A stretch of 47,586 nt of DNA from assembly GCA_964588145.1 (NCBI GenBank), contig CAZPNL010000003.1, positions 1 to 47,586 of the forward strand, read 5' to 3'. This DNA comes from an uncultured Gammaproteobacteria bacterium. Its GTDB lineage: Bacteria > Patescibacteriota > Microgenomatia > UBA10105 > UBA927. A program made the translations under genes and the position numbers. Shown in pieces: positions 14,588 through 45,433 of this stretch. The notes under the pieces are model-generated. The model was not told the origin of the DNA, made no database searches, and saw only the letters and a list, made by a program, of their open reading frames with translations. Position 1 is the first letter of the stretch; each line of letters starts with the position of its first letter.

Positions 14588-14600
14588 CATAATTAGCCAA

Positions 14601-14763
14601 TGGGAGGTTCGCCCCGTGCATGTTAGTTACGACTAACGGGGCGCCCCCTACAAAAAAATACAACCAGAAGGGGCGAATCCTCTTCTGGGCACTTATCAAA
14701 ATTGGGAGTAAACCCCGCTTCCTTTGAAATATCTAAAGCGGGGTCGACTCTCCCTCTGGGCAC
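14601..14763 (+). pseudogene. Degenerate 3'-half copies of tRNA-Leu(CAG), two with hairpin inserts in the T-loop
   Basis: 14702-14763 = TTGGGAGT + 34-nt CCCCGC...GCGGGG hairpin + TCGACTCTCCCTCTGGGCAC; further relics at about 14601-14650 and 14664-14692. Confidence 0.8.
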
Positions 14764-14851
14764 AAATAAGACGAAAGACTAAAGACGAAAGACAAAAGTT
14801 AGATGAATTGTTTAATTTTATAGCATAATATTTTGCTCGATACGAAGACAA

Positions 14852-15226
14852 ATGACCTACAAATTTGAAAAACTTGAAGTATGGACAAAGTCGAAGGAAT
14901 CGTTAAAGAATATTTATATTCTTTGCAATAAAATGCCTAAAAGTGAGGAAAGAAATCTAATTGATCAATTGCGTAGATCAGCCACATCAATTCTTTTAAA
15001 TATCGCTGAAGGAAGTGGAGCCGAAAATGATACAGAATTTAAGCGTTATTTACAAATAAGTAGAAAATCACACTTAGAGTGAGTTGCTATTCTTCTACTT
15101 ATACAAGATTTATATGGCTTTGATATAGAAAAAGAACTAGCTCAATTAGAAGAGATTGGCAAAATGCTTCACGGTTTAGTACAATACTTATCATCGGAAG
15201 CAAAAAGTACTAAATTAAGCAAATAG
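14852..15226 (+). pseudogene. Four-helix-bundle (23S rRNA IVP/Avd-like) gene interrupted by in-frame TGA
   Basis: FEKLEVW...DQLRRSATSILLNIAEG; TGA at 15080-15082, then the frame continues VAILLLIQDL...IGKMLHGLVQYL to TAG at 15224-15226. Confidence 0.8.
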
Positions 15227-15346
15227 CTTGTAATATATTTAATTACAAATTGATATATAATTATTTACTTATTGATCTCAAGTTTTCGATATTAAATTTT
15301 GTTTTTTAGTCTTTGGTCATTAGACGTTAGACTTAAGTCTTAAATT

Positions 15347-15428
15347 GCGGACGTGGCGGAATTGGTATACGCGCAGTCTTGAGGAGGCTGTGTCGCAAGG
15401 CATGGAGGTTCAAGTCCTCTCGTCCGCA
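15347..15428 (+). tRNA. tRNA-Leu(GAG)
   Basis: GCGGACG/CGTCCGC acceptor, CAGTC-TTGAGGA-GGCTG anticodon arm. Confidence 0.93.
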
Positions 15429-15471
15429 CAAATGTTTGTGGGTGCGCTAGTTTAAAACTTCATCCCCGAAA

Positions 15472-15531
15472 GAGGTTCACCCCGCTTTATATAATTCAGT
15501 TGAAGCGGGGCAAAAGTCCTCTCGTCCGCAC
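15472..15531 (+). pseudogene. 3'-end copy of tRNA-Leu(GAG) with 35-nt hairpin in T-loop
   Basis: GAGGTTCA + CCCCGCTTTATATAATTCAGTTGAAGCGGGGCAAA + AGTCCTCTCGTCCGCAC. Confidence 0.85.
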
Positions 15532-15718
15532 AAATGGTAGTTTGTGCACTACTATGACGTGTTTGATCTCTGAGGTTTATTTTGTGCATAATTAGAGCTC
15601 AAAGCAAAATACCTCGCACCTTTGATATATACAAACGGGGCACCCCGCTTTATATAATTCAATAGAAGCGGGGCAAATGAGTCGTTTTGTAAACATATAA
15701 AAGTTGAATACATAATTA

Positions 15719-16009
15719 TTGAAATCAATGATATATAATTTAGTATTTCCTATACTGCTATCACTGTTAATGACCTATTTAGGCATCGATTGTATTATCG
15801 AATACTTTCGGGGGAATGGAATTTCAGTTGATTTTAGATGGTATTTATCTCCGTTATGGCTCAGACAGCAATATTATGTTCCAGTTAAATATATAAAAGT
15901 TAAACCAAAAAAGTCTGAAAGAGTTACCTTACTGATTTTGGCAATAGGAAGTTTTTGCATTGCAGCAGTAGGTATATATTCGATTTTCATTCTTATCCAA
16001 AATAAATAA
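15719..16009 (+). CDS. Hypothetical 2-TM membrane protein
   Basis: 96-aa ORF with two hydrophobic segments; no recognised family. Confidence 0.55.
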   Translation: MKSMIYNLVFPILLSLLMTYLGIDCIIEYFRGNGISVDFRWYLSPLWLRQQYYVPVKYIKVKPKKSERVTLLILAIGSFCIAAVGIYSIFILIQNK

Positions 16010-16076
16010 GTAATTCACAAAAGTGTAATTACACACGTTCAACGAGATTTGGTAACTTATTAGAATCACTTTATCT

Positions 16077-16136
16077 GAAGTTCACCCCGCTTTTTATATT
16101 TCAGTTGAAGCGGGGCAAGAGTCCTCTCGTCTGTAC
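16077..16136 (+). pseudogene. Second, more degenerate tRNA-Leu(GAG) 3'-end copy with the same 35-nt hairpin insert
   Basis: GAAGTTCA + CCCCGC...GCGGGGCAAG + AGTCCTCTCGTCTGTAC. Confidence 0.75.
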
Positions 16137-16148
16137 AATTCATTAAAT

Positions 16149-16174
16149 AATCCCGTTAACGACGGGATTTTTTT
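16149..16174 (+). terminator. Candidate intrinsic terminator
   Basis: AATCCCGT-TAACG-ACGGGATT followed by T-run. Confidence 0.5.
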
Positions 16175-16187
16175 GTATAATACCCAT

Positions 16188-16778
16188 ATGGAACTTGCAA
16201 AAACAATCCTAGGATATGTAGCAACGCTCCTTGTATTTATAGGATACATACCATACATCAAGGATGTTGTTGCTGGGAAAACTAAACCCCACATATACAG
16301 CTGGATCCTGTGGGGTCTAGTTACTGCTATCGCTTTCGCACTTCAGTACAGTGCTGGGGCCGGATCTGGTTCATTTGTCACGCTTGCAGCAGCCCTCATG
16401 TGTGGTGTGGTGATTGTGTTATCACTAAAGGCTAAATCCCAAGTCAAAATAGTATTGATAGATACAGTATTTCTCCTGCTGGCCTTTCTCGCAATAGCCC
16501 TATGGCTTGTGGCCAAACAGCCTGTGCTGTCTGCTGTGCTTGTAACAGCCATAGACGTGCTGGGGTTTTTACCTACAGTGCGAAAGTCTTGGCACGAACC
16601 AGAAAGCGAGACTGTATCTTTTTATTTTCTCAATACTGCTCGATTTATGCTCTCAGTGGTCGCACTGCAAAGCTATAGTATCGTCACCACGCTCTATCCA
16701 GTCAGTTGGTTACTCATAAATTTTTGCTTTGGATTTCTGCTTATTGTCAGAAAAAGGATGCTGAGGGAAAAATCGTAG
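16188..16778 (+). CDS. Conserved hypothetical multi-TM membrane protein
   Basis: About 6 TM with internal repeat (YIPYIKD..KTKPH / FLPTVRKSWHEP), PQ-loop-like spacing; start at MELAK. Confidence 0.7.
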   Translation: MELAKTILGYVATLLVFIGYIPYIKDVVAGKTKPHIYSWILWGLVTAIAFALQYSAGAGSGSFVTLAAALMCGVVIVLSLKAKSQVKIVLIDTVFLLLAFLAIALWLVAKQPVLSAVLVTAIDVLGFLPTVRKSWHEPESETVSFYFLNTARFMLSVVALQSYSIVTTLYPVSWLLINFCFGFLLIVRKRMLREKS

Positions 16779-16786
16779 CAAAAAAA

Positions 16787-18118
16787 TTAATTAGTTTCAT
16801 TGCAAGTATACTTATACACATGCCAGGAAAATCTCGTAAAGCAAGCGCCTTCTGGCTTGAATTGTATTTTTCGTTGTCTATCTCCGAGGTATATGTATAA
16901 AGGTGTAGGGAGCTTATCAAGCAATTCTTTTTCAACATCACGATTATTACTGAGCCAAAACTGATTCCACTGATCATAATTCCAATAGACATCGTATTGA
17001 CCAAATCCTGGCGTAATGGATCTTCTTTCAGAATAGCCATACACCCACGGTGTGTATTCGTTGTCCGCCACAAGTATATAGCTATCTGGCTCCGTTGTTT
17101 GCAAAAGTTTAATTTCTTCAAATTCATCTGTCAGTATCAGTGCCTCAGACTGGGTATAGACAAAATATATATTTGAAACAAGTAGTATTGCCAGTACTAT
17201 ATATCTTAAGTGGGTTTTTAATCGCGCGAGTACTGGTGCTGCTAGGAGTATCGCAAAAATATCAATATATGGAATAAATCTTCGTGATAAAAACATGCCT
17301 GACGCCTGTAAGAGGCTGATAAAAAATAATATCCAAATTTCTGGAACTCTTACTATCTTTTTATGAAAATACGAAAACCCTGCAAATACGATATACAAAG
17401 ACATATACACAAGTGACGGTACTATGTCCATAAACGTCCCGCTCTCTGCGGCTGGCATGACTCCACGGATAAAGCTAGGAAGAAATGGCATGATAGTACG
17501 ATCAAAATTTGGCACATAATATAGGAAAAATGCAGAAAGCGCAGATAATGCTGTAACTATATGAAATCTACTCCACATCTTATGATATAAGGGGACAAAG
17601 ATCACTACTACCGCTAGAATCGCTGTCGGCTGATGTAAAAGTATGAGAGCAGGAGTCAGTATCCATGCCCATTTTGACTTTGCCCTGTAGGCTAGTATAA
17701 GCCAAAGGAGGAGCGCTATCGCAAATATATTTTTTAGATAGTAGTACCAATACAGCTTGTATTGAATCACCGATAGACTCAAAAGTGTCACCGCAGAAAT
17801 AGCTGACTTGGCATCATACAGCTTTCGAGCCACAATGTAGACACTAAAAAACAATGAAAGAGATGCGAGTAGAATCAACGGCACCAATATTGATTCTGGA
17901 GTTGCCCAAAATGTCGTGAGTTTGACGACCACTGGTAGAAGTGGGGGATACATGCTGATCACCCAATCTGGAAGGCTTGTATAGCCCAGGAGTGGTACTT
18001 GTGTATAAGACTTAAACAGATATAGATACAGTCCAGGGTCATATCCCAATGGAACTGGTGAGAATAGATAGCTATATATTCTTATAAAAAAGAAATAAAA
18101 GCCTATAAAAAATAACAT
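16787..18118 (-). CDS. Polytopic membrane protein, GT-C-like glycosyltransferase candidate
   Basis: TM1 followed by PLGYDPGLY acidic loop, many TMs, soluble C-terminal domain. Confidence 0.6.
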   Translation of the reverse strand: MLFFIGFYFFFIRIYSYLFSPVPLGYDPGLYLYLFKSYTQVPLLGYTSLPDWVISMYPPLLPVVVKLTTFWATPESILVPLILLASLSLFFSVYIVARKLYDAKSAISAVTLLSLSVIQYKLYWYYYLKNIFAIALLLWLILAYRAKSKWAWILTPALILLHQPTAILAVVVIFVPLYHKMWSRFHIVTALSALSAFFLYYVPNFDRTIMPFLPSFIRGVMPAAESGTFMDIVPSLVYMSLYIVFAGFSYFHKKIVRVPEIWILFFISLLQASGMFLSRRFIPYIDIFAILLAAPVLARLKTHLRYIVLAILLVSNIYFVYTQSEALILTDEFEEIKLLQTTEPDSYILVADNEYTPWVYGYSERRSITPGFGQYDVYWNYDQWNQFWLSNNRDVEKELLDKLPTPLYIYLGDRQRKIQFKPEGACFTRFSWHVYKYTCNETN

Positions 18119-18123
18119 ATTAC

Positions 18124-18918
18124 TTAAAAATCAGGAACGTAAATTACAATACGATTGCTATCAACGTATGAATCAGAAGGAATTGTTTGAACAGGCCCAT
18201 GCTTGTTAATAATAATATCTTGAAGCTCCTCGTAATCAATAAAGTTGGATTCATCTATCGCAATAACCATATGTTCAGAAGCTTTGTATTTTGAAGAAGA
18301 TTGTGACAAATATACATTTTGATAATTATTAGCCCTTAGAAATGTAGCTAGCTCTTGGGCGCTATGAGTATTTTTATTATAAATTATATGAATATATGAT
18401 GCTCTAAGAAAATAATTACTTTGCTTTACATAAATATGTCCGAAATATCCCAACAATACACCTAAAAACAATAAACTTATATACGAAATATATAGCTGAA
18501 ATTTTAAAAGTATTATATGTATCTTTGATATTATAAATAAAATATCATTCAAAATAGAGTCAATAAATATGACCAGTAAAATCATAAAAAATATATCAAA
18601 TCTATGAAAATATACAAAGCCTGCTAATAAAGTAAATATAATTATTCGTATAAAATTATAAGCATATAATATGTATTTGCGATTACTATAAAAATGAGCA
18701 ATCTGTAATTTGTTAATATCAACAGTGGTAACAATAATAGAATATATACATCCAAAAAAAATAACTAAAAATAGGTACATCTCGATACCATTAATGGTGC
18801 CAAGATTGCTCAAGGTTTCTTGTAAAAAAATTCGCAAAAGAAGATATAGCAATATACTATATTGAAATAGTTTAATAAAAAAATAATATAAAACTGATAA
18901 AATATAGGACATAATCAA
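18124..18918 (-). CDS. Hypothetical membrane protein with soluble C-terminal (possibly LytR_C-like) domain
   Basis: 264 aa, very AT-rich coding; domain call is weak. Confidence 0.5.
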   Translation of the reverse strand: MIMSYILSVLYYFFIKLFQYSILLYLLLRIFLQETLSNLGTINGIEMYLFLVIFFGCIYSIIVTTVDINKLQIAHFYSNRKYILYAYNFIRIIIFTLLAGFVYFHRFDIFFMILLVIFIDSILNDILFIISKIHIILLKFQLYISYISLLFLGVLLGYFGHIYVKQSNYFLRASYIHIIYNKNTHSAQELATFLRANNYQNVYLSQSSSKYKASEHMVIAIDESNFIDYEELQDIIINKHGPVQTIPSDSYVDSNRIVIYVPDF

Positions 18919-18931
18919 AATTACCTAATTA

Positions 18932-20833
18932 CTATTTCTTACAATAGCTAGAATGTATATCATCTACTTGAGCACTACTGAGTTTATATATTGCTAAATC
19001 AACTGCCATATTTTGGGACTCACGAGGTACATTATTGCAATAATCCATGGCTGTTTGTGTCAGAACGTGTCCCATTTCAGAAAATCCCTGAGTTTGGGTT
19101 AGCCGAAAAATTTCACATGTTTTAGCTAACCTTGGATAGAGTAAAGCAGTATAATTCACATACTCAGGATTAAATTTTAAAATATTTTTTGAAATCTCAC
19201 TTTTACGATTTGTAATAATATAATAATCTTCGTAATGACAAATATTTGATTTTGGTGTAGATAGGTTTTTACTATTGTACAAACTTCCACCTTGAGATAG
19301 TGATATATTTAACAAATTTTCTAAGGATTTTTGATCTAAGGCTATTGTTTGAAAATTATATAAAAAATACAAAGGCTCACCAATTTTTGCATCACCAATT
19401 GAATTGTAATCGATATAATATACTGATTTGTCATATGATAATTGTTTAGATAATAATTTAGTCTGCTCTATAGACCCAGAATACTCTTTAACTAACAAGG
19501 AAGGGTACGATAATGCAATATTAATGGTAATTATCAACAACAAAATAATATATTTTAAGCTTCCCCTCATATAACCTAAAGCTACTGCTGATAATAAACT
19601 CAACCATGGAAAAATTATATGGTAATACCGACGCAAAAACCAAGGCATATCAAAACTAATTGAAGGATTAAATATATATACAAAATGTGGCAGTATTATA
19701 AAAATAATCATTATAATCAATTTAAACTGATATTTATCACGTTTTATTATTGAAGCCAAACCAATACATGCAAGCAATATATATAGCAGTGCATTATACA
19801 AGTTGAGTATATATAAGCTCATTTGGGGTATATGATACTCAAGCGCATTAGGATCAATTTGTGCGCGACGCAATTGAGAGTAATTAGTAGTACTTAATAC
19901 ACCAGAGTGGACAATATTTGTATAAATGTTGGATATAAATGAACTTAGTTGACTAATCGTAGATGTGTTAAGAATAAATACATAATAATAAAATGGTATA
20001 AATAACACGAATACAATTATAAAGTCATAAATAATTTTGCGGAAATTATTTGATCGTAAAAAAATAAAAATAGTATAAAGCGATGCAAATATAATACCTT
20101 CTATACGAGTCAAAGATAACAAAAGTACAGAAATTACTCCAAACCACTTTATGTGAACTTTATTAGTTTTATAATACTCAACAAGGCATAATAATGAGTA
20201 AAACACTAAACACAATGCTAAATTTTCACTATATGTTTTTCTACTTACCCAGGTAAAGCAATAAGTAGTAGTAAATATAAGAATAGCAATAATGGATGTT
20301 CTTAGCCCAAAAAGTCGAATAGATAATCCATAAAATGAGAATAATCCAAAAATGAGCAATAGTGCTTGTGAAATCGGTACAACATAGTATCCAAATATAG
20401 AGATAAACCATGCTAGCCAAATTGTATAAGCTGGGTAAAAACCTTGCTGTATGCAATCGTTAGAAAGTATGTATCCTGGATACGATAAAATGTTTATATT
20501 AGAAAAACAATATGATCCATGTTTTGAGATTTCTATAGCAGAATTTGCATATACCCCATCATCCCTACCTCCCAAATACACTTCATGAAACTGTACTATT
20601 CCAAAAATTGCAATGGTAATTATATACATAGGCACAAACATATTTATATAATTAATAGATTTAATATTAATTGTAAAAATAACCTTGAATGTGTTTCCTA
20701 TACACATGAAGAATAATAATATCGACAATATACTATTAAATTTTCCCAAAAAGCTTATGACACAAAGAATTAACGCACTAAATAAATATGGAAATACAAT
20801 ATAAAGTAATTTTTGCGTATTTAGATATTGCAT
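18932..20833 (-). CDS. Polytopic membrane protein, GT-C/PMT-like glycosyltransferase candidate
   Basis: GGRDDGVY loop after the N-terminal TMs, TYSENLA and LTRIEG motifs. Confidence 0.65.
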   Translation of the reverse strand: MQYLNTQKLLYIVFPYLFSALILCVISFLGKFNSILSILLFFMCIGNTFKVIFTINIKSINYINMFVPMYIITIAIFGIVQFHEVYLGGRDDGVYANSAIEISKHGSYCFSNINILSYPGYILSNDCIQQGFYPAYTIWLAWFISIFGYYVVPISQALLLIFGLFSFYGLSIRLFGLRTSIIAILIFTTTYCFTWVSRKTYSENLALCLVFYSLLCLVEYYKTNKVHIKWFGVISVLLLSLTRIEGIIFASLYTIFIFLRSNNFRKIIYDFIIVFVLFIPFYYYVFILNTSTISQLSSFISNIYTNIVHSGVLSTTNYSQLRRAQIDPNALEYHIPQMSLYILNLYNALLYILLACIGLASIIKRDKYQFKLIIMIIFIILPHFVYIFNPSISFDMPWFLRRYYHIIFPWLSLLSAVALGYMRGSLKYIILLLIITINIALSYPSLLVKEYSGSIEQTKLLSKQLSYDKSVYYIDYNSIGDAKIGEPLYFLYNFQTIALDQKSLENLLNISLSQGGSLYNSKNLSTPKSNICHYEDYYIITNRKSEISKNILKFNPEYVNYTALLYPRLAKTCEIFRLTQTQGFSEMGHVLTQTAMDYCNNVPRESQNMAVDLAIYKLSSAQVDDIHSSYCKK

Positions 20834-20834
20834 A

Positions 20835-21911
20835 TCAATAAGATTTACTTAAAATCTGAAGATAGCTTTCTATAAATTGATTTTTATCAAATTTTTCAGA
20901 CTGAAAATAATTATCAATAATATTTACTTCTGGTTTACGTAAAATCACAGACTCGATGGCATTATATATATCATTATTATCAAATGGATCTATCATAACT
21001 CCTGCGCTTCCTAAAACCTCAACTATAGAAGAGGTACGAGAAGAAATTACTCTACAGCCATATTGAAGTGCCTCTAAAACGGGAAATCCAAATCCTTCAT
21101 AAATCGAAGGATATATAAAAGCTATTGAATGTAGGTAAAGATTTACTTTAATATGATCTGGAACATAACCTAAATATTCAATATTATTATACAAATTATT
21201 CGCATCAATATAATCAAATATCTCACTATATTTCCAGCCCTTTTTACCCACTAGTACTAGTTTATAGCCAGGATACTTTTGAATTATTTTATGGAAAGCC
21301 TGTAACAATCGAAGAATGTTCTTTCTGGGTTCTATAGTACCGACATATAAAAAATATGGTACTTTTATATATGGAACATCTTGATCATCTATACTTAGCC
21401 TGTCTAAAGAGGGATATATAACACTAATTTTTGAACTAGATATATGAAAATGCTTTATAAGATCATTTTTTGTACTTAAAGATGGAACAACGATTTTAAA
21501 GCAATGATCTAAGCTGAATTTCATGAGAATTTTATAAATTAATACCCGAGTAAAGGGATGAGTATTTGGATAAATAATCCAACTAAGGTCATAAATCACC
21601 ATAATTTCTTTCTGCTTAAAAGGCCAAATATGTGGAGTGCCATCTGTATTTATAATGTAGTCAAAATCCATATGTCGTATACGAAAAGGCAAAGTAAGAC
21701 ACCATGAAATATTTTTAAAAATAGGCATAAAAGATGGCAAAAGCACAAGATTATCCTTATTGAAATCATTTTTAAGATAATCTAAGAATGAAAATTGCCA
21801 ACCCAACTTTGATGACTTATGTAACAAGCCAGAGCATAGCGTTTTCGTATACACGCCTATTCCCGTTAAATTGTCACGAACGCTATCTGTTGTAACAGCA
21901 ATATTTCTCAT
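20835..21911 (-). CDS. Glycosyltransferase family 4
   Basis: YVGTIEPRKN, YPSIYEGFGFPVLEAL. Confidence 0.92.
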   Translation of the reverse strand: MRNIAVTTDSVRDNLTGIGVYTKTLCSGLLHKSSKLGWQFSFLDYLKNDFNKDNLVLLPSFMPIFKNISWCLTLPFRIRHMDFDYIINTDGTPHIWPFKQKEIMVIYDLSWIIYPNTHPFTRVLIYKILMKFSLDHCFKIVVPSLSTKNDLIKHFHISSSKISVIYPSLDRLSIDDQDVPYIKVPYFLYVGTIEPRKNILRLLQAFHKIIQKYPGYKLVLVGKKGWKYSEIFDYIDANNLYNNIEYLGYVPDHIKVNLYLHSIAFIYPSIYEGFGFPVLEALQYGCRVISSRTSSIVEVLGSAGVMIDPFDNNDIYNAIESVILRKPEVNIIDNYFQSEKFDKNQFIESYLQILSKSY

Positions 21912-22858
21912 AAATTTTTGTATAATGATATATAGGGATCTATTGAGGTCTTACTCATTTGAGTGCTTGAAATTTTACGAAAAGAACATTTTCTAATAGA
22001 TTGAATTAATTGCTCAATATTATTATCTTGAGATAAATACGCGTTTTTATAGCCATGCAATGTTTCACCTATAGCACTATTGTTAAAAGTAAATATTGCT
22101 AATCCAAACTTCATTGCATCTCGAAGCTGATAACCATACCCCTCAAACATTGATGGACACAACATACCATCTGACTTCTTATATAATTCTAAAAGTTCAT
22201 CTCGAGTAGATACGACCACTGGGATCATATTTTTAGGAAGCCCATAATATAAATGACGTTTAGCAGTAAAATACAGCACATATCTTTCACCCAGAGATTT
22301 CATTATTGACGAAAGCAAATGAAAACCCTTTCGGTGACTATTTGATCCTACAAACAATAATCTGACACTAGAAGATTTGATACTATTTTCCTTGTATTTA
22401 ATAGGTGAAAGTGGTTCATCTATTGGCTGTATATAAATCGTCTTTTTATTAGGAAAAGAATTTATGAATGACTTTTTTGTGTACTGACTAATTGCAATAA
22501 TTTTCGAAGATATTAGTAGTGATTTTCGAATTTGACTACGTAAAAAATTACTATAGTAAAACTTTTGTAGTACTGTACACCTATGAAAGTAGGTCAGATC
22601 AAATACATTGTGAAATATACTTGAAATAATCTTATTTGTAGTATAAGCAAAAATCCATGCATATTCTATATTTGTATGTACAACATCTGCAGCACGGCCA
22701 TAGCCTGCAATGCGAAGAACATAGGGTACATATTGAAAGACATGATGATGCTTATGAAGCGTTACATTCATGTTTCGATTCTTTAGTGTGTTAAATAAAT
22801 TGATAAAATACACATCGCTACCTGTGCCACAATGAATATAATGTATTTCTATTTTCAT
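21908..22858 (-). CDS. Glycosyltransferase family 4
   Basis: FVGSNSHRKGF, PSMFEGYGYQLRDAM. Confidence 0.85.
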   Translation of the reverse strand: MKIEIHYIHCGTGSDVYFINLFNTLKNRNMNVTLHKHHHVFQYVPYVLRIAGYGRAADVVHTNIEYAWIFAYTTNKIISSIFHNVFDLTYFHRCTVLQKFYYSNFLRSQIRKSLLISSKIIAISQYTKKSFINSFPNKKTIYIQPIDEPLSPIKYKENSIKSSSVRLLFVGSNSHRKGFHLLSSIMKSLGERYVLYFTAKRHLYYGLPKNMIPVVVSTRDELLELYKKSDGMLCPSMFEGYGYQLRDAMKFGLAIFTFNNSAIGETLHGYKNAYLSQDNNIEQLIQSIRKCSFRKISSTQMSKTSIDPYISLYKNL

Positions 22859-24048
22859 ATTTTCTTATAAATCTCTTTATATAATTTTGAGGTTACATTG
22901 AGCGAATATTTTTTGATAAAAACTTTTCTTGTATAGATCTTCTTATGTTGAGGACTTTTTAAGCTTTTGATTATTGCTCTTGCAAGCTGCTGGCTATCTC
23001 CTGGTTTAACAAGCTTTCCAATTCTATTGTTCGAAATTATTGAAGGGATACCACCTGACCGAGACCCTATCAAATTGCAGCCACATAATCCAGCCTCTAT
23101 GAGAGACAAACCGAGTCCTTCACAATCTCCATTTCTCGCAACTATTGAGGGATAGATAAAAAGTTTTGAATTAGAATAATAATTAACCAATTGATTATTA
23201 GGCACACCACCAATAAATGAAATATTCCTCTTTAAATAAAGCTTTGCAATTAATTGTAAAAGATTTTCGTATTCATCTCCCTTACCGATAATGGTAAGCT
23301 TAACCATTGGATAAGTTTTAACAACTTTTGATAATGCCTCTATTAATACAAATAGGCCCTTCTTCTCGACAAGTCTTCCAACATACAGAATATCACTCTT
23401 GTACTTAGTGCAATCTCCAGCATGACATATTTTCTTAAAATGCAGATCGTCTACTCCAATTGGAATAACATCAATTTTTACCTTTGAACCTATGACATTA
23501 AGTACATAATTTTTTAACTGGGGACTAACAGCATTTACTTGACTTGCTTGGTCTAAAATATATTTTTTCAAGTGCATAATTGGAAAATAATTCAAAGTAT
23601 ATACATCAGCACCATGTAAAGTTAAAACATAATGCATGTTGCACATTTTTTTTAACACTAAAGCCACAATCCCTTGTGGTAAAAGCCAGTGGGCGTGTAT
23701 AAACGAAATATTATAAGAACTACAAATATATAAGGCAAAAACTATTTGAGATAATATAAAACCAGGCACCAACAAGGCTCGAAGTACATTATTCTGAATA
23801 GATGAAAGAATTCCGGAAATACCACAGAGAACTTCTAAATTATATGGAATAGCATATATAAATCGAAATATACTCACTTGTTCAGATAATTTTTCATAAA
23901 TACGTGCTTTTTTAAAATGAGGTCCCAAAAGAATAACTTTATAATCATCAGATACTTTGTGTGCTAAATTGACAATAAAATTAGGTAAAGTATCATGTTG
24001 CCATCTTGGCAAAGTCGATGTAAGCATAAGGACAGTAGGTTGCAGCAT
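22855..24048 (-). CDS. Glycosyltransferase family 4
   Basis: HAHWLLPQG, YVGRLVEKKG, EGLGLSLIEA. Confidence 0.92.
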   Translation of the reverse strand: MLQPTVLMLTSTLPRWQHDTLPNFIVNLAHKVSDDYKVILLGPHFKKARIYEKLSEQVSIFRFIYAIPYNLEVLCGISGILSSIQNNVLRALLVPGFILSQIVFALYICSSYNISFIHAHWLLPQGIVALVLKKMCNMHYVLTLHGADVYTLNYFPIMHLKKYILDQASQVNAVSPQLKNYVLNVIGSKVKIDVIPIGVDDLHFKKICHAGDCTKYKSDILYVGRLVEKKGLFVLIEALSKVVKTYPMVKLTIIGKGDEYENLLQLIAKLYLKRNISFIGGVPNNQLVNYYSNSKLFIYPSIVARNGDCEGLGLSLIEAGLCGCNLIGSRSGGIPSIISNNRIGKLVKPGDSQQLARAIIKSLKSPQHKKIYTRKVFIKKYSLNVTSKLYKEIYKKI

Positions 24049-27439: not shown

Positions 27440-27492
27440 GACGATTAGCTCAGATGTTTACCCCGAAAGCGTAAGCTTTTTGGGGGTAGAGC
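27440..27492 (+). pseudogene. 5'-half copy of tRNA-Val with 29-nt hairpin in D-loop
   Basis: GACGATTAGCTCAGATG + TTTACCCCGAAAGCGTAAGCTTTTTGGGG + GTAGAGC. Confidence 0.8.
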
Positions 27493-27519: not shown

Positions 27520-27592
27520 GGACGATTAGCTCAGCTGGTAGAGCGCTTCATTTACACTGAAGATGTCGGGGGTTCGAGTCCCTCATCGTCCA
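27520..27592 (+). tRNA. tRNA-Val(TAC)
   Basis: GGACGAT/ATCGTCC acceptor, CTTCA-TTTACAC-TGAAG. Confidence 0.93.
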
Positions 27593-27660
27593 CAAAATAA
27601 GCCTAAAGTCTTAAGACGAAAGTCGATAGACCTGTGTTAAAATATAAAGTGTTCTAACTG

Positions 27661-27825: not shown

Positions 27826-27949
27826 TAGACGTTCTGGTGGTACCTTTAGTGGTGCAGGATGATGTTTCGTCATCCCGGTGCAGATGTGTGCCGTTATAGT
27901 CAGAGTAATTGATAAATTTTTACAAAATTCATCAATTGCAGAACGTCTA
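27826..27949 (+). ncRNA. Retron ncRNA (msr-msd) candidate
   Basis: Perfect 11-bp inverted repeats TAGACGTTCTG (27826-36) / CAGAACGTCTA (27939-49); G at 27837 right after the stem; three short stem-loops (27840-55, 27857-75, 27876-93); long AT-rich hairpin 27905-27939. Confidence 0.85.
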
Positions 27950-27952
27950 CAC

Positions 27953-28849
27953 ATGGGTATGAATTTCTTTCAAAAACTATTTGACGGTGGACGTGGTTCG
28001 GACATATTGGCACAAAAATTTGGATTCAATCCAGAAATCCTTTCCACTTGGGAACAGGGAAATCCAAATGGTTGTGATTACACTACCTTTCAAATACCCA
28101 AACGTCGCAAAGGTGCATATCGCACTATCACGGCACCAAATCCACCACTCAAGGCATTACAACGCCAAGTGTATAGAAATGTGCTTAAACGACTCCCGGT
28201 ACACCCAGCGTGCACAGGGTTTTCTCCAAAAAAATCAACAGTAGATGCAGCCATGCCCCATGTAGGCAAAGAAGTGGTTATACATATGGATCTCAAAGAT
28301 TTTTTTGATCACATCACCTATGATCGTATTTATAATTATTTTCGTGCGATAGGGTGGGGGAAATATGTCTCTCATATCCTTACAAATATCCTCACAAAAG
28401 ATGGCAAAGCACCACAAGGTGCGCCTACTAGTCCTATGATCTCTAATCTTATCGCATACAAGCTAGATGCTCGCATAAATAGCCTCATGGAGACATTTGA
28501 AGGCTCTTATACACGCTATGCTGATGACATTACGTTATCATTTAGATCAAGCAATATGCATTTCAAAAGCGCACTCCATATAGTATGTACCATTATTAAC
28601 GAAGAAGGTTTCAAAATCCAAAAAGCCAAAAAAATCAAAATCATGCGGCCACATGACAGGCAGGAAGTGCTATCAATCATCGTCAATAAAAAACTCAATG
28701 CGCCGAGAAAAATGCGTAGACTCATACGTGCCATGGAGCATGCTAATAGAATTGGAAAACTCCCATCACATGAATATGCAAAACTGGATGGCTACAAATC
28801 GTACATAAATATGATAAATATGGGACGAGCCAAACCTTCATTACAATGA
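27953..28849 (+). CDS. Retron-type reverse transcriptase (298 aa)
   Basis: IPK...RTITAP, LKALQR, MDLKDFF, PQGAPTSP, YTRYADD; start trimmed to ATG 27953 (or 27959), directly after the ncRNA repeat. Confidence 0.92.
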   Translation: MGMNFFQKLFDGGRGSDILAQKFGFNPEILSTWEQGNPNGCDYTTFQIPKRRKGAYRTITAPNPPLKALQRQVYRNVLKRLPVHPACTGFSPKKSTVDAAMPHVGKEVVIHMDLKDFFDHITYDRIYNYFRAIGWGKYVSHILTNILTKDGKAPQGAPTSPMISNLIAYKLDARINSLMETFEGSYTRYADDITLSFRSSNMHFKSALHIVCTIINEEGFKIQKAKKIKIMRPHDRQEVLSIIVNKKLNAPRKMRRLIRAMEHANRIGKLPSHEYAKLDGYKSYINMINMGRAKPSLQ

Positions 28850-30954: not shown

Positions 30955-31103
30955 AAAATCATAAATATATATGATTTTTTGAGTATAGACCCATCTAATC
31001 AGCTTTGCTACCTCTTAGAGTTGCAAACCTGAGTAAGATGGGTTTACAATAACATATACCTCTTTATGCCCGAGCTCACAAGTAGGCAATTGAGGCTATA
31101 ATT

Positions 31104-31172
31104 TGCGGGGTCGTTCAATGGTAGGTCCCTTATATTCGCATTCGCTCATATAAGGGATTAAAAACACTTGCC
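31104..31172 (+). pseudogene. 5'-half relic of a tRNA-Gln with hairpin insert after the D-loop
   Basis: TGCGGGGTCGTTCAATGGTAGG + TCCCTTATAT...ATATAAGGGA insert + ACACTTGCC. Confidence 0.75.
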
Positions 31173-31193
31173 ATCTTTGGTCATGTGTGGCGC

Positions 31194-31265
31194 TGCGAGG
31201 TCGTTCAATGGTAGGACACTTGCCTTTGGAGCAAGGTATTCTTGGTTCGAATCCAAGCCTCGCAG
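31194..31265 (+). tRNA. tRNA-Gln(TTG)
   Basis: TGCGAGG/CCTCGCA acceptor, CTTGC-CTTTGGA-GCAAG. Confidence 0.93.
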
Positions 31266-31282
31266 CGCTGCACAGGACAAAT

Positions 31283-31349
31283 AAGGTATTCTTGGTAAGC
31301 CCCGCTTCAATATAAATAAATAATGCGGGGACGAATCCAAGCCCCGCAG
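31283..31349 (+). pseudogene. 3'-half relic of a tRNA-Gln with ~35-nt hairpin in T-loop
   Basis: AAGGTATTCTTGGT + AAGCCCCGC...GCGGGGA + CGAATCCAAGCCCCGCAG. Confidence 0.8.
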
Positions 31350-38835: not shown

Positions 38836-38845
38836 ATTTTTAGTT

Positions 38846-39307: not shown

Positions 39308-39319
39308 GGTGCTTTAGGG

Positions 39320-41001: not shown

Positions 41002-41061
41002 AGAATTTTAATATTTATAATGAACACAGTTGAGGTAAATATCAACGGTAAATGATATAAT

Positions 41062-41571
41062 GTGCTTATGCCTGTACCATATTATCGTAAACGAAAATGG
41101 ACTAAAACTCAGCTCAAAATAGCTATATCAGAATCCATAAGTATTCGTCAGATATTAAAAAAGCTAAACTTAAAGGCAGCAGGCGGAAATTACACCCAAA
41201 TACAAAAATATATCAAGCAGTATAAGTTTGATATATCGCATATAAAGGGGAAAGGTTGGAGTAAAAATAAAACAGGTATTGGTATAAATAGATTGTCACT
41301 CAACAAAATATTAGTAGAAAACAGTGATTTTCAAAGTTTTAAATTGAAAAAAAGACTTTTTCAAGCGAAAATAAAAATGCCAATCTGCGAAATATGTGGT
41401 TGGTCAGAAAGAACAATTGATGGTAGAATTCCAGTAGAACTTGATCATATCAACGGCAATAAATTTGATAATCGACTTATTAATTTAAGAATTCTATGTC
41501 CGAACTGTCACAGCCTACAGTCCACACATAGAGGAAAAAATAAAAGATATAAAGGTTCGATGGCGGAATAG
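41062..41571 (+). CDS. HNH endonuclease
   Basis: CEICG...ELDHINGNKFDNRLINLRILCPNCH; stop codon lies inside the downstream tRNA. Confidence 0.9.
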   Translation: MLMPVPYYRKRKWTKTQLKIAISESISIRQILKKLNLKAAGGNYTQIQKYIKQYKFDISHIKGKGWSKNKTGIGINRLSLNKILVENSDFQSFKLKKRLFQAKIKMPICEICGWSERTIDGRIPVELDHINGNKFDNRLINLRILCPNCHSLQSTHRGKNKRYKGSMAE

Positions 41572-41637
41572 GTATACGCGCAGCACTTAAAATGCTGTGG
41601 TGGCAACACCATGTGGGTTCGATTCCCACTCGGACCA
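41554..41637 (+). tRNA. tRNA-Leu(TAA)
   Basis: GGTTCGA/TCGGACC acceptor, CAGCA-CTTAAAA-TGCTG, long variable arm; no intron. Confidence 0.92.
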
Positions 41638-41655
41638 CTAAGATTAAATAAAATT

Positions 41656-41994: not shown

Positions 41995-42066
41995 AACAAA
42001 AATACTGTACAATATAAATCTATCTAATTTTACTTTTTGCAATTTAAATTTTAAATTTGTGCTTTA

Positions 42067-42149
42067 CGGGATGTAGTTCATCGCAAGCTGGCGGAGGCTA
42101 GAATGGGACGTCAAACGTCCCTATCGCGTTAGACGCGATGCACACTTTG
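42067..42149 (+). pseudogene. 5'-half relic of tRNA-Pro with two hairpin inserts
   Basis: CGGGATGTAGTTCA[15 nt]GGCTAGAATG[35 nt double hairpin]CACACTTTG. Confidence 0.8.
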
Positions 42150-42193
42150 TTCCGTAATTTTTACGAAATTATAATGCTATTGAAAGATTTAGT

Positions 42194-42270
42194 CGGGATG
42201 TAGTTCAGTTGGCTAGAATGCACGCTTTGGGAGCGTGAGGTCGCCAGTTCGAATCTGGCCATCCCGACCA
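42194..42270 (+). tRNA. tRNA-Pro(TGG)
   Basis: CGGGATG/CATCCCG acceptor, CACGC-TTTGGGA-GCGTG, encoded CCA. Confidence 0.95.
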
Positions 42271-42287
42271 TATTTTACAATACACAC

Positions 42288-43340: not shown

Positions 43341-43395
43341 ATGTAGTATTATACATGGAGAAAGTTAAATATATTATAAAAAGCAACTTTAAGTT

Positions 43396-43911
43396 ATGAA
43401 AACTGAAGAAGATAAAATAACAACAGTTTCCCAAGACTTACGCTCTCTCTGGAATTTCATCCCAAAATGGGCAAAGTATGGAGCAGCTATAATGCTATTC
43501 ATATACATTGTTATTGCAGCCTTCTACTACAAATCAAATCCTTTAGGACCAGAGCTTTTGGTGAATGGAAAAACCATTAAGCTTCTTGTTGCAGTCACCC
43601 CTGATCAAAAGCAAAAAGGACTAGGATATCGATCGAGTATGCCTGAGGATACAGGAATGGTATTTCCATTCGATACCAAAGAAAAACATGGATTTTGGAT
43701 GAAGGGGATGCAATTTCCCTTAGACTTTGTCTGGATAGATGGAAATACCATTGCAGATATCACAGAAAATGTCCTGCCTCCTGCAAGTGATGGTCCCCTA
43801 CAAACCGTTTCACCAAAAGTACCAGTAGATAAAGTGCTCGAGCTCAACGCCGGGCAGGTGGCAAAACTCGGCCTTAAGGTAGGGGATACGGTCAAATTTC
43901 GCACAAATTAA
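43396..43911 (+). CDS. DUF192 domain protein with N-terminal TM
   Basis: KGLGYR..MPEDTGMVF..FWMKGMQFPLD..VLELNAG. Confidence 0.9.
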   Translation: MKTEEDKITTVSQDLRSLWNFIPKWAKYGAAIMLFIYIVIAAFYYKSNPLGPELLVNGKTIKLLVAVTPDQKQKGLGYRSSMPEDTGMVFPFDTKEKHGFWMKGMQFPLDFVWIDGNTIADITENVLPPASDGPLQTVSPKVPVDKVLELNAGQVAKLGLKVGDTVKFRTN

Positions 43912-44070
43912 ATCCTCAAGTGAGTGAGTATATCTTGCATTCAACCCAAAATCAGGTAAAATTAGAAAGTAACGTTTGTAGTTTGAAGCTGGTCGTTTGA
44001 GGTAAATAAACGAATCTAATAACTTCAATACTATGCTAGGGAAACTGTTCTGAGCAAAAGCGGAATAATA

Positions 44071-44180
44071 GCGGGCTTGCCCGCCGTAGTCCCGCCTTAG
44101 CGAGGTGAATTTGAAGTAGCTAGGGTGTCACAAAAGCGGGCTTGCCCGCCGTAGTCCCGCCTTAGCGGGACGTAGGCGGG
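44071..44180 (+). repeat. Two copies of CTTG-headed palindromic mini-element upstream of tRNA-Gly
   Basis: Identical 32 nt GCGGGCTTGCCCGCCGTAGTCCCGCCTTAGCG at 44071 and 44136. Confidence 0.85.
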
Positions 44181-44246
44181 TGTAGCTCAATGGTAGAGTA
44201 CCAGTTTTCCAAACTGGCTACAGGGGTCCGATTCCCCTCATCCGCT
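44176..44246 (+). tRNA. tRNA-Gly(TCC)
   Basis: GCGGGTG/CATCCGC acceptor, CCAGT-TTTCCAA-ACTGG; T-loop variant TCCGATT. Confidence 0.88.
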
Positions 44247-44425
44247 CAAAAAAAAATTAGGAATCGGACAGTTTGGGGGGGTCCGACTATAGTCCCTTGA
44301 ACGGTAGTGAAAGGGGTTCCCCTCATCCGCTCAAAAAAAAATTAGGAATCGGACAGTTTGGGGGGGTCCGACTATAGTCCCTTGAACGGTAGTGAAAGGG
44401 GTTCCCCTCATCCGCTCAAAAAAAT
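44232..44425 (+). repeat. 85-bp tandem repeat carrying tRNA-Gly 3' end with 30-nt T-loop insert
   Basis: TTCCCCTCATCCGCTC starts at 44232, 44317 and 44402. Confidence 0.92.
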
Positions 44426-44513
44426 AGAGAATCGGGCAATGGGGAGGCAGACTATATTCCCTAAACGATAGCAAAAAAAGAATTTCAATCGTCTGCCTCA
44501 TAAAAAAATTGGT

Positions 44514-44861
44514 ATGTCAAATTCATCAAAAATACTTTCCTTAGCCTCAATAGGAATTGGTGGTATCTGTACGATTACAAGTTTACTTTTTTACTTCATT
44601 GTTTCATCTAAGATTCAAAGTATGTATGCGGACTTTGGAATCGCTTCAAAATCTCAAGCAGTATCTAGCACTTTGCACGGAATATTATTTTTGCTTGGTA
44701 TAACTGATATAGGAGTTGGAATAGTATCTATGAGGTGGAGAAATCAGCCTAAACAATTTATCTATTTACCACTTGTATGTACGGCTGCATCAATCTTGCT
44801 TTTTGGATATATTTTATCTGGACTGATGTTATCAGCCATATCTCCACTTAATTCTTTATAA
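44514..44861 (+). CDS. Hypothetical 3-TM membrane protein
   Basis: 115 aa hydrophobic ORF. Confidence 0.6.
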   Translation: MSNSSKILSLASIGIGGICTITSLLFYFIVSSKIQSMYADFGIASKSQAVSSTLHGILFLLGITDIGVGIVSMRWRNQPKQFIYLPLVCTAASILLFGYILSGLMLSAISPLNSL

Positions 44862-45232
44862 GTTCAAATATACCATTAATTTTCTCTTAAGTTTGACCTG
44901 TTATAATTATACAGTGTTATCTGAGTTAAAATGAGGTTGCTATTGGATACATAATAATTAATTTCAAGGCACAATACGTTATCGGAATATTCAGGGGAGC
45001 ATAGCATTTTTATCTCGCTAAAACGAGATTTATAACCAAAAAGCAGTATAATGTTAATAGATTCACATAGCATGCCCCGTCTCTGACGGGATTAACAAGT
45101 CTGCCTCGCTTTGACGAGAATGAGGGTCAAGGCGGGTAGAGCACCCCGTAAATTCGGGTATAAAAATGAATACTAAGTTCTCGCCCCGTTGAAACGGGAT
45201 GTCGAGCCGGTAGATTATATAATTATTAGGAA

Positions 45233-45293
45233 GCTCTCATAGCATGCCCCGTATGTGACGGGGTCAACGGATAGAGCAACCCGTAAATACGGG
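45233..45293 (+). pseudogene. 5'-half of a split tRNA-Arg-like gene with hairpin insert
   Basis: GCTCTCATAGC[ATGCCCCGTATGTGACGGGG]TCAACGGATAGAGCA; D-loop GGA (A20) is typical of Arg. Confidence 0.75.
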
Positions 45294-45308
45294 ATTAAAT
45301 ATAAAATT

Positions 45309-45380
45309 GTTCTCGTAGCTCAATGGATAGAGCAAGCCCCTTCTAAGGGTTAGATGAGAGTTCGATTCTCTCCGAGAACG
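45309..45380 (+). tRNA. tRNA-Arg(TCT)
   Basis: GTTCTCG/CGAGAAC acceptor, AGCCC-CTTCTAA-GGGTT. Confidence 0.92.
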
Positions 45381-45391
45381 CATATTGAGGA

Positions 45392-45433
45392 ATTTACGGG
45401 GAGGTTGCAGGTTCGATTCCTGCTGGGAGCGCA
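45392..45433 (+). pseudogene. 3'-half of the split tRNA-Arg-like gene
   Basis: AGGTT-GCAGG-TTCGATT-CCTGC-TGGGAGC-G; TGGGAGC pairs with GCTCTCA at 45233. Confidence 0.8.

Follow-up and report, generated by a model that had tools for sequence, protein, structure and literature searches.

Hairpin-split partial tRNA copies and small GIY-YIG nuclease genes at the tRNA loci of a Patescibacteriota genome

Why should most of the tRNA genes in a stretch of bacterial DNA be accompanied by a second, partial copy of themselves that is split by a GC-rich hairpin? The question is raised by positions 1 to 47,586 of contig CAZPNL010000003.1 (assembly GCA_964588145.1), from an uncultured bacterium which the GTDB assigns to the Patescibacteriota; "the window" denotes this whole stretch of 47,586 nucleotides. 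The duplications were first noticed in an annotation made from the letters alone (the first-pass annotation in what follows). The answer developed here is that these hairpin-bearing partial copies are most likely footprints of tiny selfish nuclease-gene cassettes which enter tRNA genes again and again and supply a replacement piece, the nuclease being a domain-only GIY-YIG protein of the UPF0213 type.

The genome comprises 1.55 Mb in 139 contigs, with a mean GC content of 41%, and carries 42 tRNA genes, one gene copy per anticodon; 11 of these lie in the window, every one on the + strand, as ARAGORN and Rfam agree. Partial copies, called relics here, were scored by aligning each tRNA with its own flanks of 350 nt on either side, using a gapped aligner in which long gaps are cheap, and the cut-off was set at the 99th percentile over 3,280 mismatched tRNA/flank pairs. 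By this measure 21 of 84 flanks are relic-positive on the same strand as the tRNA and 2 of 84 on the opposite strand, compared to an expected 0.84 (P = 2e-23). A same-strand partial copy lies within 350 nt of 19 of the 42 tRNAs in the genome and of 7 of the 11 in the window, and the seven window loci that pass the threshold are exactly those which the first-pass annotation had named: Leu-CAG, Leu-GAG and Gly-TCC (twice) have copies downstream, Val-TAC, Pro-TGG and Arg-TCT have them upstream, and Gln-TTG has them on both sides.

The polarity of the relics is strict. Pieces of the 5' part lie only upstream of the intact tRNA and pieces of the 3' part only downstream, a pattern which had been reported for the window and to which the genome-wide flank alignment yields no exception; upstream copies all begin at tRNA position 1-5, downstream copies all run to the tRNA 3' end, and the two kinds are about equally frequent, each making up half of the relics. 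The distance from relic to intact gene is 13-180 nt. Outside their inserts the copies in the window are approximately 96% identical to the live gene (224 of 234 aligned bases), and the inserts themselves measure 34, 35, 34, 30, 29, 38, 12+35 and 20 nt. These lengths agree with those given earlier, as does the self-complementarity that was claimed for the inserts, 12 of 13 of which fold better than their own shuffles (mean z = -3.8). Every hairpin-bearing copy is no more than half a gene. Inserts were not seen in any intact tRNA; the intact genes of the window are uninterrupted, scoring 53-72 bits as tRNAs, and an Rfam scan of the window found no intron, so that the inserts do not answer to tRNA introns of either the group I or the protein-spliced kind. 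The seven loci are made up as follows.

14502 to 14588, + strand: intact tRNA-Leu(CAG) (ARAGORN, Rfam).
14602 to 14692, + strand: pseudo tRNA 3' end, made up of GGGAGGTTCG, a double hairpin after the T-loop TTCG, and then AATCCTCTTCTGGGCAC (sequence).
14612 to 14641 and 14642 to 14675, + strand: the two parts of that double hairpin, CCCCGT..ACGGGG and CGCCCC..GGGGCG (sequence).
14701 to 14763, + strand: 3' relic of tRNA-Leu(CAG), with positions 59-67, a 34-nt T-loop insert at 14710-14743 and positions 68-87, 20/20 identical (alignment); the insert holds the hairpin CCCCGC-N19-GCGGGG at 14713-14743 (sequence).
15347 to 15429, + strand: intact tRNA-Leu(GAG) (ARAGORN, Rfam).
15472 to 15531, + strand: 3' relic of tRNA-Leu(GAG), with GAGGTTC, a 35-nt T-loop insert (hairpin 15480-15510) and positions 66-83, 18/18 identical (alignment).
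16077 to 16136, + strand: second 3' relic of tRNA-Leu(GAG), slightly decayed, with the hairpin CCCCGC-N19-GCGGGG at 16085-16115 (sequence); it brackets a membrane open reading frame (ORF) of 96 aa (15719-16009).
27440 to 27492, + strand: 5' relic of tRNA-Val(TAC), with positions 2-17, a 29-nt D-loop hairpin insert at 27456-27484 and positions 18-25 (alignment, folding); an extended -10-like element, TGATATAAT, lies immediately upstream.
27520 to 27593, + strand: intact tRNA-Val(TAC) (ARAGORN, Rfam).
31104 to 31180, + strand: 5' relic of an older tRNA-Gln allele, with positions 1-22 (acceptor TGCGGGG), a 38-nt hairpin insert at 31126-31163 and positions 23-36 (alignment); a promoter-like site ahead of it ends at 31102.
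31194 to 31266, + strand: intact tRNA-Gln(TTG), acceptor TGCGAGG/CCTCGCA, nested on an extended stem with a relic half on either side (ARAGORN, sequence, fold).
31283 to 31349, + strand: 3' relic of the older tRNA-Gln allele, with positions 40-53, a 34-nt T-loop insert (hairpin 31300-31330) and positions 54-72 (alignment); its acceptor CCCCGCA pairs with the 5' relic.
42067 to 42149, + strand: 5' relic of tRNA-Pro(TGG), with positions 1-14, a 12-nt D-loop insert, positions 15-24, a 35-nt double-hairpin insert at 42103-42137, placed at the junction of the D and anticodon stems, and positions 25-36 (alignment, folding).
42194 to 42270, + strand: intact tRNA-Pro(TGG) (ARAGORN, Rfam).
44176 to 44247, + strand: intact tRNA-Gly(TCC) (ARAGORN, Rfam).
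44232 to 44424, + strand: 85-nt tandem unit, 2.3 copies, 100% identical, in register with the T-loop of tRNA-Gly(TCC) (TRF, alignment); each unit consists of a new 3' end, a spacer, GGGGTCCGA and a 30-nt hairpin insert (44287-44316; 44372-44401), and a third, decayed unit continues to about 44500.
45062 to 45294, + strand: two to three stacked 5' leaders of tRNA-Arg type (alignment, sequence), the last of which (45233-45294) reads GCTCTCA-TAGC-[CCCCGTATGTGACGGGG]-TCAACGGATAGAGCAA-[CCCGTAAATACGGG].
45309 to 45381, + strand: intact tRNA-Arg(TCT), within the inverted repeat CCCGTAAAT / ATTTACGGG (ARAGORN, sequence, fold).
45398 to 45433, + strand: 3' half of an outer, different tRNA-Arg-like gene, with T-arm GCAGG/CCTGC and acceptor TGGGAGC (sequence; fold z = -2.95); the acceptor strand pairs with GCTCTCA of the 5' leader.

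The stems CCCCGC..GCGGGG and CCCCGT..ACGGGG are as the first-pass annotation described them, and its proposal of a hairpin element family which targets tRNA loops can be set against the distribution of the hairpins. GC hairpins number 3.4 per kb in the non-coding flanks of tRNAs, 0.63 in other non-coding DNA and 0.15 in coding DNA (P = 7e-22), the density in tRNA flanks being 5.4-fold that of other non-coding DNA. Insert positions were scored automatically for 24 inserts from this genome and its relatives; 10 fall in the 7-nt T-loop (P = 3e-5), 8 in the D-loop, D-stem or boundary, and 3 in the variable region. Random placement, which had been named in advance as an outcome that would overturn the proposal, is thus not what is found. 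A general rule that inserts avoid stems was rejected, because the 16 of 24 inserts in loops or junctions compare with a background of 59% (P = 0.3), and only the concentration in the T-loop is significant. The proposal is therefore upheld as far as T-loop clustering is concerned, and in that the hairpin families appear from their sequence contexts to behave as dispersed insertion modules, while a preference for loops in general is not borne out.

The hairpin CCCCGC-N19-GCGGGG is found in the T-loops of the Leu-CAG, Leu-GAG, Gln and Leu-CAA relics and also within an unrelated repeat, CCTGAGCTTG^TCGAAGG, which is known in empty and filled forms, and the insertion context GT^TCGA is common to the relic T-loops and this repeat. 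The repeat family CCTGAGC-X-TCGAAGG has 38 copies across the genome (for example at C11 9356-10248 and C8 33316-33367), in which the centre X is either 3-5 nt or one of several nested GC hairpins; this REP-like family (REP, repetitive extragenic palindromic) shows no general link to GIY-YIG genes or to tRNAs. The double-hairpin pseudo 3' end has three copies in the genome, each 22-154 nt downstream of a tRNA. The double hairpin is absent from 86 other genomes of the order, and the 12 matches obtained in JGI metagenomes are all chance matches on contigs of 56-78% GC.

The tabulation of target duplications suggested by the first-pass annotation gave a divided result: there is no overall signal around the GC hairpins of this genome, and there are 4-bp target-site-like duplications around a related 17-nt hairpin, CCCCGATTNAATCGGGG, in relatives. 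The latter hairpin belongs to Lys, His and Arg leaders; among 301 genomes of the class, 54 contain it, with up to 19 copies per genome, and exact 4-5-nt direct repeats of varying sequence accompany 11 of 28 copies in relatives, as against 1 of 28 in a shifted control. Together with a 4-bp target-site-like duplication it adds 21 bp per insertion (L074-L103, from class-level relatives), and it may be among the smallest mobile units. One copy stands in place of the tip of a 23S rRNA helix (L086) and one in a group I intron; another, at about 1470-1540 of L102 (genome G040), lies in sequence resembling the 5' part of RNase P RNA (GAGGAAAGTCCAGACCGCAGGAAGCAGGGTG), a resemblance that is unconfirmed, Rfam giving no match at its gathering threshold.

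If the hairpins and the duplications are to be explained together, then it must be asked whether any nuclease is distributed in the same way as the relics. The first-pass annotation had called for a search of this kind, and had suggested an HUH or similar nuclease as the agent. A link to HUH enzymes is not supported, because the hairpins that flank the Y1/HUH genes of the genome (PF01797, five genes) are unlike those of the tRNA relics; it is a tiny GIY-YIG gene of the UPF0213 type that travels with relics, and Y1 does not. The Y1 genes, which are IS200/RAYT-like (RAYT, REP-associated tyrosine transposase), lie on contigs C49, C37, C25, C4 and C58; four are complete, at about 225-310 aa, and that on C4 is a C-terminal part of 153 aa. 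The hairpins that flank those on C49, C37 and C58 are GCCCACCTCCGAGGTGGGC, CAAGGTTCGACCTTG and AGGTCGGACCT.

The genome contains 12 GIY-YIG matches, ten of which are ORFs of 80-115 codons that match PF01541 over positions 1-78 with 42-61 bits. The small proteins (about 80-100 aa) consist of the catalytic domain only, with no separate DNA-binding domain, and their nearest solved structures are those of the UPF0213 proteins 1zg2 and 1ywl. Four of the ten genes stand beside tRNAs in this genome (P = 6e-5). Small GIY-YIG genes are found in 40 of 41 relatives, with a median of about 7 per genome of roughly 1 Mb and nearly all free of stop codons; among 35 such ORFs sampled in 30 loci of relatives, 22 lie within 400 nt of a tRNA, on the same strand in 21 of those 22 (P = 2e-23). 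The arrangements that combine relic, ORF and tRNA are the following.

Contig C73: positions 1-28 of tRNA-Tyr, the hairpin TCCCGCCGTGGCGGGA, positions 36-53, a GIY-YIG ORF that runs into the tRNA, and the intact tRNA-Tyr.
Contig C3, the window's own, at 54.3-54.9 kb: Arg-TCG, two hairpin-split pseudo 3' ends, a GIY-YIG ORF, Lys-CTT and further relics.
Relatives, in the order 5' relic, ORF, tRNA: Gln-CTG (L033), Lys-TTT (L029), Arg-TCG (L042), Lys-TTT (L063) and Asn (L070).
Relatives, in the order tRNA, ORF, 3' relic: Lys-CTT (L035) and His (L058).

Position and subtype go together. Genes of one GIY-YIG subtype follow a 5' relic and precede the tRNA, their stop codon falling at the 5' end of the tRNA or within it, and those of another lie between the tRNA and a 3' relic. 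The tree of these genes has four groups, namely a clade abutting the tRNA 5' end, a clade downstream of the tRNA, an Arg-TCG/Lys-CTT clade that is common to five genomes including this one, and a tRNA-free clade. Members of the last in this genome have arrays of a GTCAT..ATGAC palindrome on both sides, and their loci (C15 1450-2250, C8 11650-12250, C74 2990-3560 and C75 700-1350) are laid out like a RAYT gene between its REPs. Homologs of the Tyr-linked gene, at 35-56% identity, occur in other groups of the Candidate Phyla Radiation (CPR), in Omnitrophota (including the complete genome NZ_CP019384), Planctomycetales, Ignavibacteria and Zixibacteria. Among 48 such cross-phylum homologs, 34 abut a same-strand tRNA, and in 12 a strong 5' tRNA copy precedes the ORF, the locus in NZ_CP019384 being one of these 12. 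In the Tyr, Glu, Ser, Leu and Asp cassettes of other phyla, the hairpin (C/T)CCCGCC..GGCGGG sits in the D-loop of the upstream copy or replaces the anticodon arm, as it does in those for Tyr and Glu.

The leader moves with the gene. At Lys-TTT (G031), His (G020) and Arg-TCG (G012), GIY-YIG genes that are sisters in the tree (support 0.996) have almost identical leaders ahead of them, composed of acceptor, TAGC, TCAA, [CCCCGATTAAATCGGGG], TCAGCGGTAGA, [second hairpin], TAGAGCA and ATG. The acceptor strand in the His leader is not that of tRNA-His, so the pseudo-tRNA leader must have moved with the ORF. The window leader at 45233-45294 shares the architecture of the ORF-bearing cassettes (L029, L058, L042), with a 14-nt linker in the place of the ORF. 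Only nuclease-less units occur within the window, the GIY-YIG genes lying elsewhere in the genome.

Two of the window loci differ from the rest in that the outer relics and the inner gene come from different alleles. At tRNA-Gln the two relic halves match each other with G-C at a pair that is A-T in the inner gene, and the halves around tRNA-Arg(TCT) plainly derive from another tRNA-Arg-like gene. At both loci the inner gene stands on a stem within the anticodon region of the old gene, and the whole unit folds as a composite cloverleaf (z = -7.7 for the 246-nt Gln unit and -2.95 for the Arg unit); the nested arrangement also occurs at L026 (Val) and G018 (Gln). These units would fit the replacement of a resident gene by an incoming one. 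They can also be read as a design at the RNA level, which is kept below as a rival because pairing between leader and trailer is not general.

The state of the cluster before the insertions can be approached through relatives. The genus is a singleton among the compared genomes, which include no close relatives. The comparisons of occupied and empty sites are made between species and not within a population. In L014, L032 and L038 the genes for Leu-CAG, Leu-GAG, Val-TAC, Phe, Gly-GCC and Gln-TTG (and His) lie within about 1 kb, separated by spacers of 0-75 nt, while L018, L025, L029, L033 and L035 bear ORFs and relics; Leu-TAA and Pro-TGG are neighbours in L019. The window has the same tRNA order and strand, spread over 33 kb, and the relics, hairpins and intervening genes are therefore insertions into an old tRNA operon. 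No strain variants of the tRNA-Leu(CAG) locus were found in metagenomes. Further features of the stretched cluster are listed here.

14275 to 14469, + strand: 77-nt tandem repeat, 2.5 copies, upstream of tRNA-Leu(CAG), with a CCCGTC..GACGGG hairpin in each unit (TRF, sequence).
14852 to 15226, + strand: four-helix-bundle gene of 23S_rRNA_IVP type (PF05635, E = 1.5e-22), in which an in-frame TGA follows codon 76; it separates the Leu(CAG) relics from tRNA-Leu(GAG).
15643 to 15673, strand not assigned: solo CCCCGC-N19-GCGGGG hairpin, which on the other strand adjoins a degenerate second hairpin (sequence).
41062 to 41571, + strand: ORF of 169 aa with an HNH-nuclease-like C-terminus (Pfam HNH match below the curated cut-off, E = 1e-3), whose 3' end overlaps the first bases of tRNA-Leu(TAA) at 41554-41638.
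44071 to 44175, + strand: repeated GC hairpins GCGGGCTTGCCCGC and TCCCGCCTTAGCGGGA, immediately upstream of tRNA-Gly(TCC) (sequence).

The gene of 23S_rRNA_IVP type has inverted AAGAC-rich repeats on both sides and is located in the tRNA cluster, not in an rRNA gene. The 169-aa ORF has an HNH-like CxxC...H motif and is laid out like the GIY-YIG genes in abutting the tRNA 5' end; upstream of it no 5' relic was observed. A reverse transcriptase of 323 aa (PF00078, E = 6e-26) at 27878-28849 fills the spacer between tRNA-Phe and tRNA-Gly(GCC), which in relatives is very short or consists of about 300-850 nt of other DNA. Positions 18000-24000 hold a minus-strand gene block of 27-31% GC, within a 12-kb insertion between tRNA-Leu(GAG) and tRNA-Val(TAC), and this block may have been horizontally acquired.

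The anatomy of the relics, their polarity, the enrichment of the hairpins and the association of nuclease, relic and hairpin are observed across genomes. The explanation which we regard as probable, though with moderate confidence, is that the window is an ancestral compact tRNA operon that has been inflated by the repeated insertion of cassettes, each bringing with it a replacement for part of a tRNA gene. Foreign DNA would enter a tRNA gene together with a fresh copy of the part that it interrupts; since the missing part is thereby supplied, the gene would stay intact and the old part would be left behind as a relic, upstream if it is a 5' part and downstream if it is a 3' part. In this lineage and in several other phyla, the passenger would usually be a domain-only GIY-YIG nuclease of the UPF0213 type, encoded by a free-standing gene 80-100 codons long. 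This nuclease would cut naive tRNA genes, and recombinational repair would copy the cassette in, by homing or by segmental amplification as with SegB. The GC-stem hairpins would be a second component of the unit, comparable to REP elements, miniature inverted-repeat transposable elements (MITEs) or intervening sequences (IVS), which as palindromic modules come to lie in the D-loop or T-loop of the displaced copy or in place of its anticodon arm. They might split a nuclease or recombination site in the relic, stabilize or terminate the cassette transcript, or serve as a structured DNA substrate of the nuclease. The units in the window would then be decayed cassettes or non-autonomous mini-cassettes, the ORF having been lost or the unit having been amplified in trans, for which the ten GIY-YIG genes elsewhere in the genome could be responsible. 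To judge from their identity and register, the 85-nt Gly-TCC units point to recent events.

Several observations weigh against this explanation. There is no small GIY-YIG gene within the window, and only 3 of the 19 relic-bearing tRNAs of the genome (Tyr, Arg-TCG and Lys-CTT) adjoin one. The main hairpin families of the window (CCCCGC-N19 and the double hairpin) are genome-specific and stand beside no ORF in any relative, and most sampled copies of CCCCGATTNAATCGGGG lie away from tRNAs and GIY-YIG genes, so that some unrelated mechanism may move the hairpins. For UPF0213 proteins no site-specific nuclease activity is on record, and their sole structures, 1zg2 and 1ywl, are structural-genomics entries. 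Because relic arms are approximately 96% and Gly-TCC units 100% identical, a simple account in terms of old decayed cassettes is insufficient, and ORF-less units must be formed or homogenized now. Lastly, the intact tRNA keeps any target that lies wholly inside the tRNA, and immunity to self-cleavage is therefore left unexplained.

If the hairpins are given priority instead, then a hairpin element would strike the loop of a live tRNA gene and inactivate it, after which a local partial duplication would restore the gene and leave the struck copy as a relic, as the first-pass annotation had envisaged. The filled and empty sites, the GT^TCGA-like target that T-loops share with an unrelated repeat, the 4-bp target-site-like duplications of the related 17-nt hairpin, the clustering in T-loops, the 5.4-fold enrichment in tRNA flanks and the fact that most relics in this genome have no adjacent nuclease gene all favour such a course. 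We nevertheless think it unlikely: each anticodon is served by a single gene, whose inactivation would kill the cell before rescue could come, and no intact tRNA with an insert is seen; restoration would require the precise duplication of exactly the missing part; and the GC hairpins of this genome lack a target-site duplication signal. Moreover, ORF-bearing cassettes already hold a hairpin-split relic and the type of hairpin tracks the nuclease clade, from which it follows that duplication and hairpin most likely arrive together and that rescue by a later local duplication is the less likely sequence of events. It is also conceivable, though decidedly unlikely, that modules of relic plus hairpin are working RNA parts, that is, transcribed leaders and trailers, tRNA-within-tRNA precursors or protective ends, which would guide processing by RNase III, RNase P or RNase Z or would stabilize or limit the transcript. 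The promoter-like sites just upstream of the Gln and Val 5' relics, rather than between relic and gene, mean that these relics are probably transcribed (a prediction), and the composite cloverleaves of the nested Gln and Arg units and the near identity of relic arms to the live tRNA point the same way. Against this, pairing between leader and trailer averages -7.8 kcal/mol, compared to -7.5 in controls, with 3 of 41 pairs below the 5th percentile; hairpin sequences are lineage-specific; the compact clusters of relatives do without such modules; and the hairpins are not terminator-like, in that 12 terminator-like sites were found where 13.3 are expected and none on the tRNA strand is a relic insert.

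A further explanation has no need of the nuclease. GC palindromes might stall replication near highly transcribed tRNAs, with duplication by template switching or unequal crossing-over and with GIY-YIG genes merely accumulating in permissive spacers. The 100% identical, in-register tandem units at Gly-TCC and at Glu-CTC (C23) suit this account, as does the presence in the cluster of other selfish or odd genes (the reverse transcriptase, the HNH-like ORF and the IVP gene); it is made improbable by what it leaves unaccounted for, namely the fixed succession, across many phyla, of relic, ORF and tRNA in which the stop of the ORF adjoins the 5' end of the tRNA, the GIY-YIG clades specific to a tRNA context, and the derivation of outer relics from a different allele than the inner gene at Arg-TCT and Gln. 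Integrase-borne islands or prophages that insert at tRNA genes leave attL/attR duplications, of which downstream 3' tRNA copies in the same orientation are the hallmark, and large gene blocks do now part the tRNAs. The first-pass annotation had thought an ordinary integrase origin unlikely, and the analysis bears this out to the point that it seems highly improbable: the genome has two tyrosine recombinases (PF00589), neither of them in the window, upstream 5' copies are as frequent as those of the 3' part, the relics are found 13-180 nt away from the gene instead of at the distant end of the blocks, and loop-centred hairpins are not a feature of att sites. There is, finally, the possibility of an assembly or binning artefact in a fragmented metagenome-assembled genome of 139 contigs. 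The same anatomy recurs in dozens of independent assemblies, including the single-contig G018 and G032 and the complete NZ_CP019384, and the relics lie inside long contigs, not at their ends; an artefact is therefore very unlikely, so much so that its probability is close to negligible.

A full-text literature search found no description of hairpin-split tRNA half-copies or of UPF0213 cassettes nested in tRNAs; what comes nearest in print is the work on SegB and a survey of insertions in the rRNA genes of the CPR. SegB, a GIY-YIG nuclease of phages T4 and T6, cuts within a tRNA cluster and drives the recombination-dependent tandem amplification of segments that contain tRNAs and the nuclease (PMC2330249; PMC13096335). 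There, as here, a GIY-YIG gene lies amid tRNA genes and units with truncated copies are found; cleavage within DNA that contains tRNAs and the co-conversion of flanking tRNA DNA would be further points in common. SegB is roughly twice as long as the present proteins and has a DNA-binding part, whereas these are bare UPF0213 domains of 80-100 aa in cellular genomes, and the strict-polarity partial tRNA copies are accompanied here by GC hairpins, a combination of which there is no report in the case of SegB. Mobile endonuclease ORFs offer another likeness: in the mitochondria of Allomyces, a GIY-YIG-type ORF comes with a duplicated atp6 3' end that serves as a replacement end for the host gene, so that a nuclease ORF and a new gene part arrive together and the displaced part remains as a pseudogene fragment beside an intact gene. 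Those elements affect protein genes in organelles and have no hairpin modules, in contrast to the many tRNA genes and the 5'- and 3'-type units found here.

REP elements and REPINs, MITEs and the Rickettsia palindromic elements resemble the present hairpins in being short, lineage-specific, dispersed palindromes whose non-autonomous copies outnumber genes, and the tRNA-free GIY-YIG genes, flanked by their own GTCAT..ATGAC hairpin arrays, recall the REP/RAYT pairing; the enzyme here is GIY-YIG and not Y1, and the units are as short as 15-35 nt and lie in the loops of tRNA copies. In rRNA genes of the CPR, short ORF-less inserts occur at the tips or bases of stem-loops, and some non-intron inserts encode GIY-YIG or 23S_rRNA_IVP proteins (PMC11270868). 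That survey of insertions contains no mention of tRNA (PMC11270868). The bacterial radiation is the same, an IVP gene lies in the present tRNA cluster, and the inserts here occupy the T- and D-loops of tRNA copies. Inserts of this kind are tolerated in rRNA because they are processed out; here, by contrast, inserts are seen only in displaced tRNA copies. Integrase att duplications, which also place a same-strand partial tRNA copy near an intact tRNA gene, differ in that here there is no integrase, 5' copies occur as well, the distances are tiny and the loops contain hairpins.

A broader proposal, which is tentative and more doubtful, is that UPF0213 GIY-YIG proteins and GC hairpins together form a single undescribed mobile system of stable-RNA genes. 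The nuclease, consisting of its domain alone, would recognize structured DNA (a hairpin or a cloverleaf) at tRNA genes, and units bearing either a replacement for part of the tRNA or an entire foreign tRNA would serve to repair the resulting breaks. The relic would be disarmed by a hairpin, situated in its T-loop or D-loop or substituted for the anticodon arm, and ORF-less mini-units would be mobilized in trans; such a system may do the work of RAYT and REP with another kind of nuclease. If this is true, then a function would be provided for UPF0213, a widespread family of unknown role, and constant turnover and xenologous replacement of tRNA genes would be at work in CPR bacteria, Omnitrophota, Planctomycetota and Ignavibacteriota.

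Whatever the agent, tRNA genes are usually viewed as passive landing sites for integrases, while in this genome about half of them show signs of repeated replacement, in part or as whole genes, and a UPF0213 nuclease gene, a partial tRNA copy of fixed polarity and a GC hairpin recur together across phyla. If the link between them is causal, it would define a new homing-type or REP-like element, would explain the break-up of compact tRNA operons in ultra-small bacteria, and would supply a route for the horizontal replacement of tRNA genes. It would also serve as a warning for annotation, the tRNA flanks of CPR genomes being full of pseudo-tRNA modules, and there is a possible tie to the unexplained short inserts in CPR rRNA genes.

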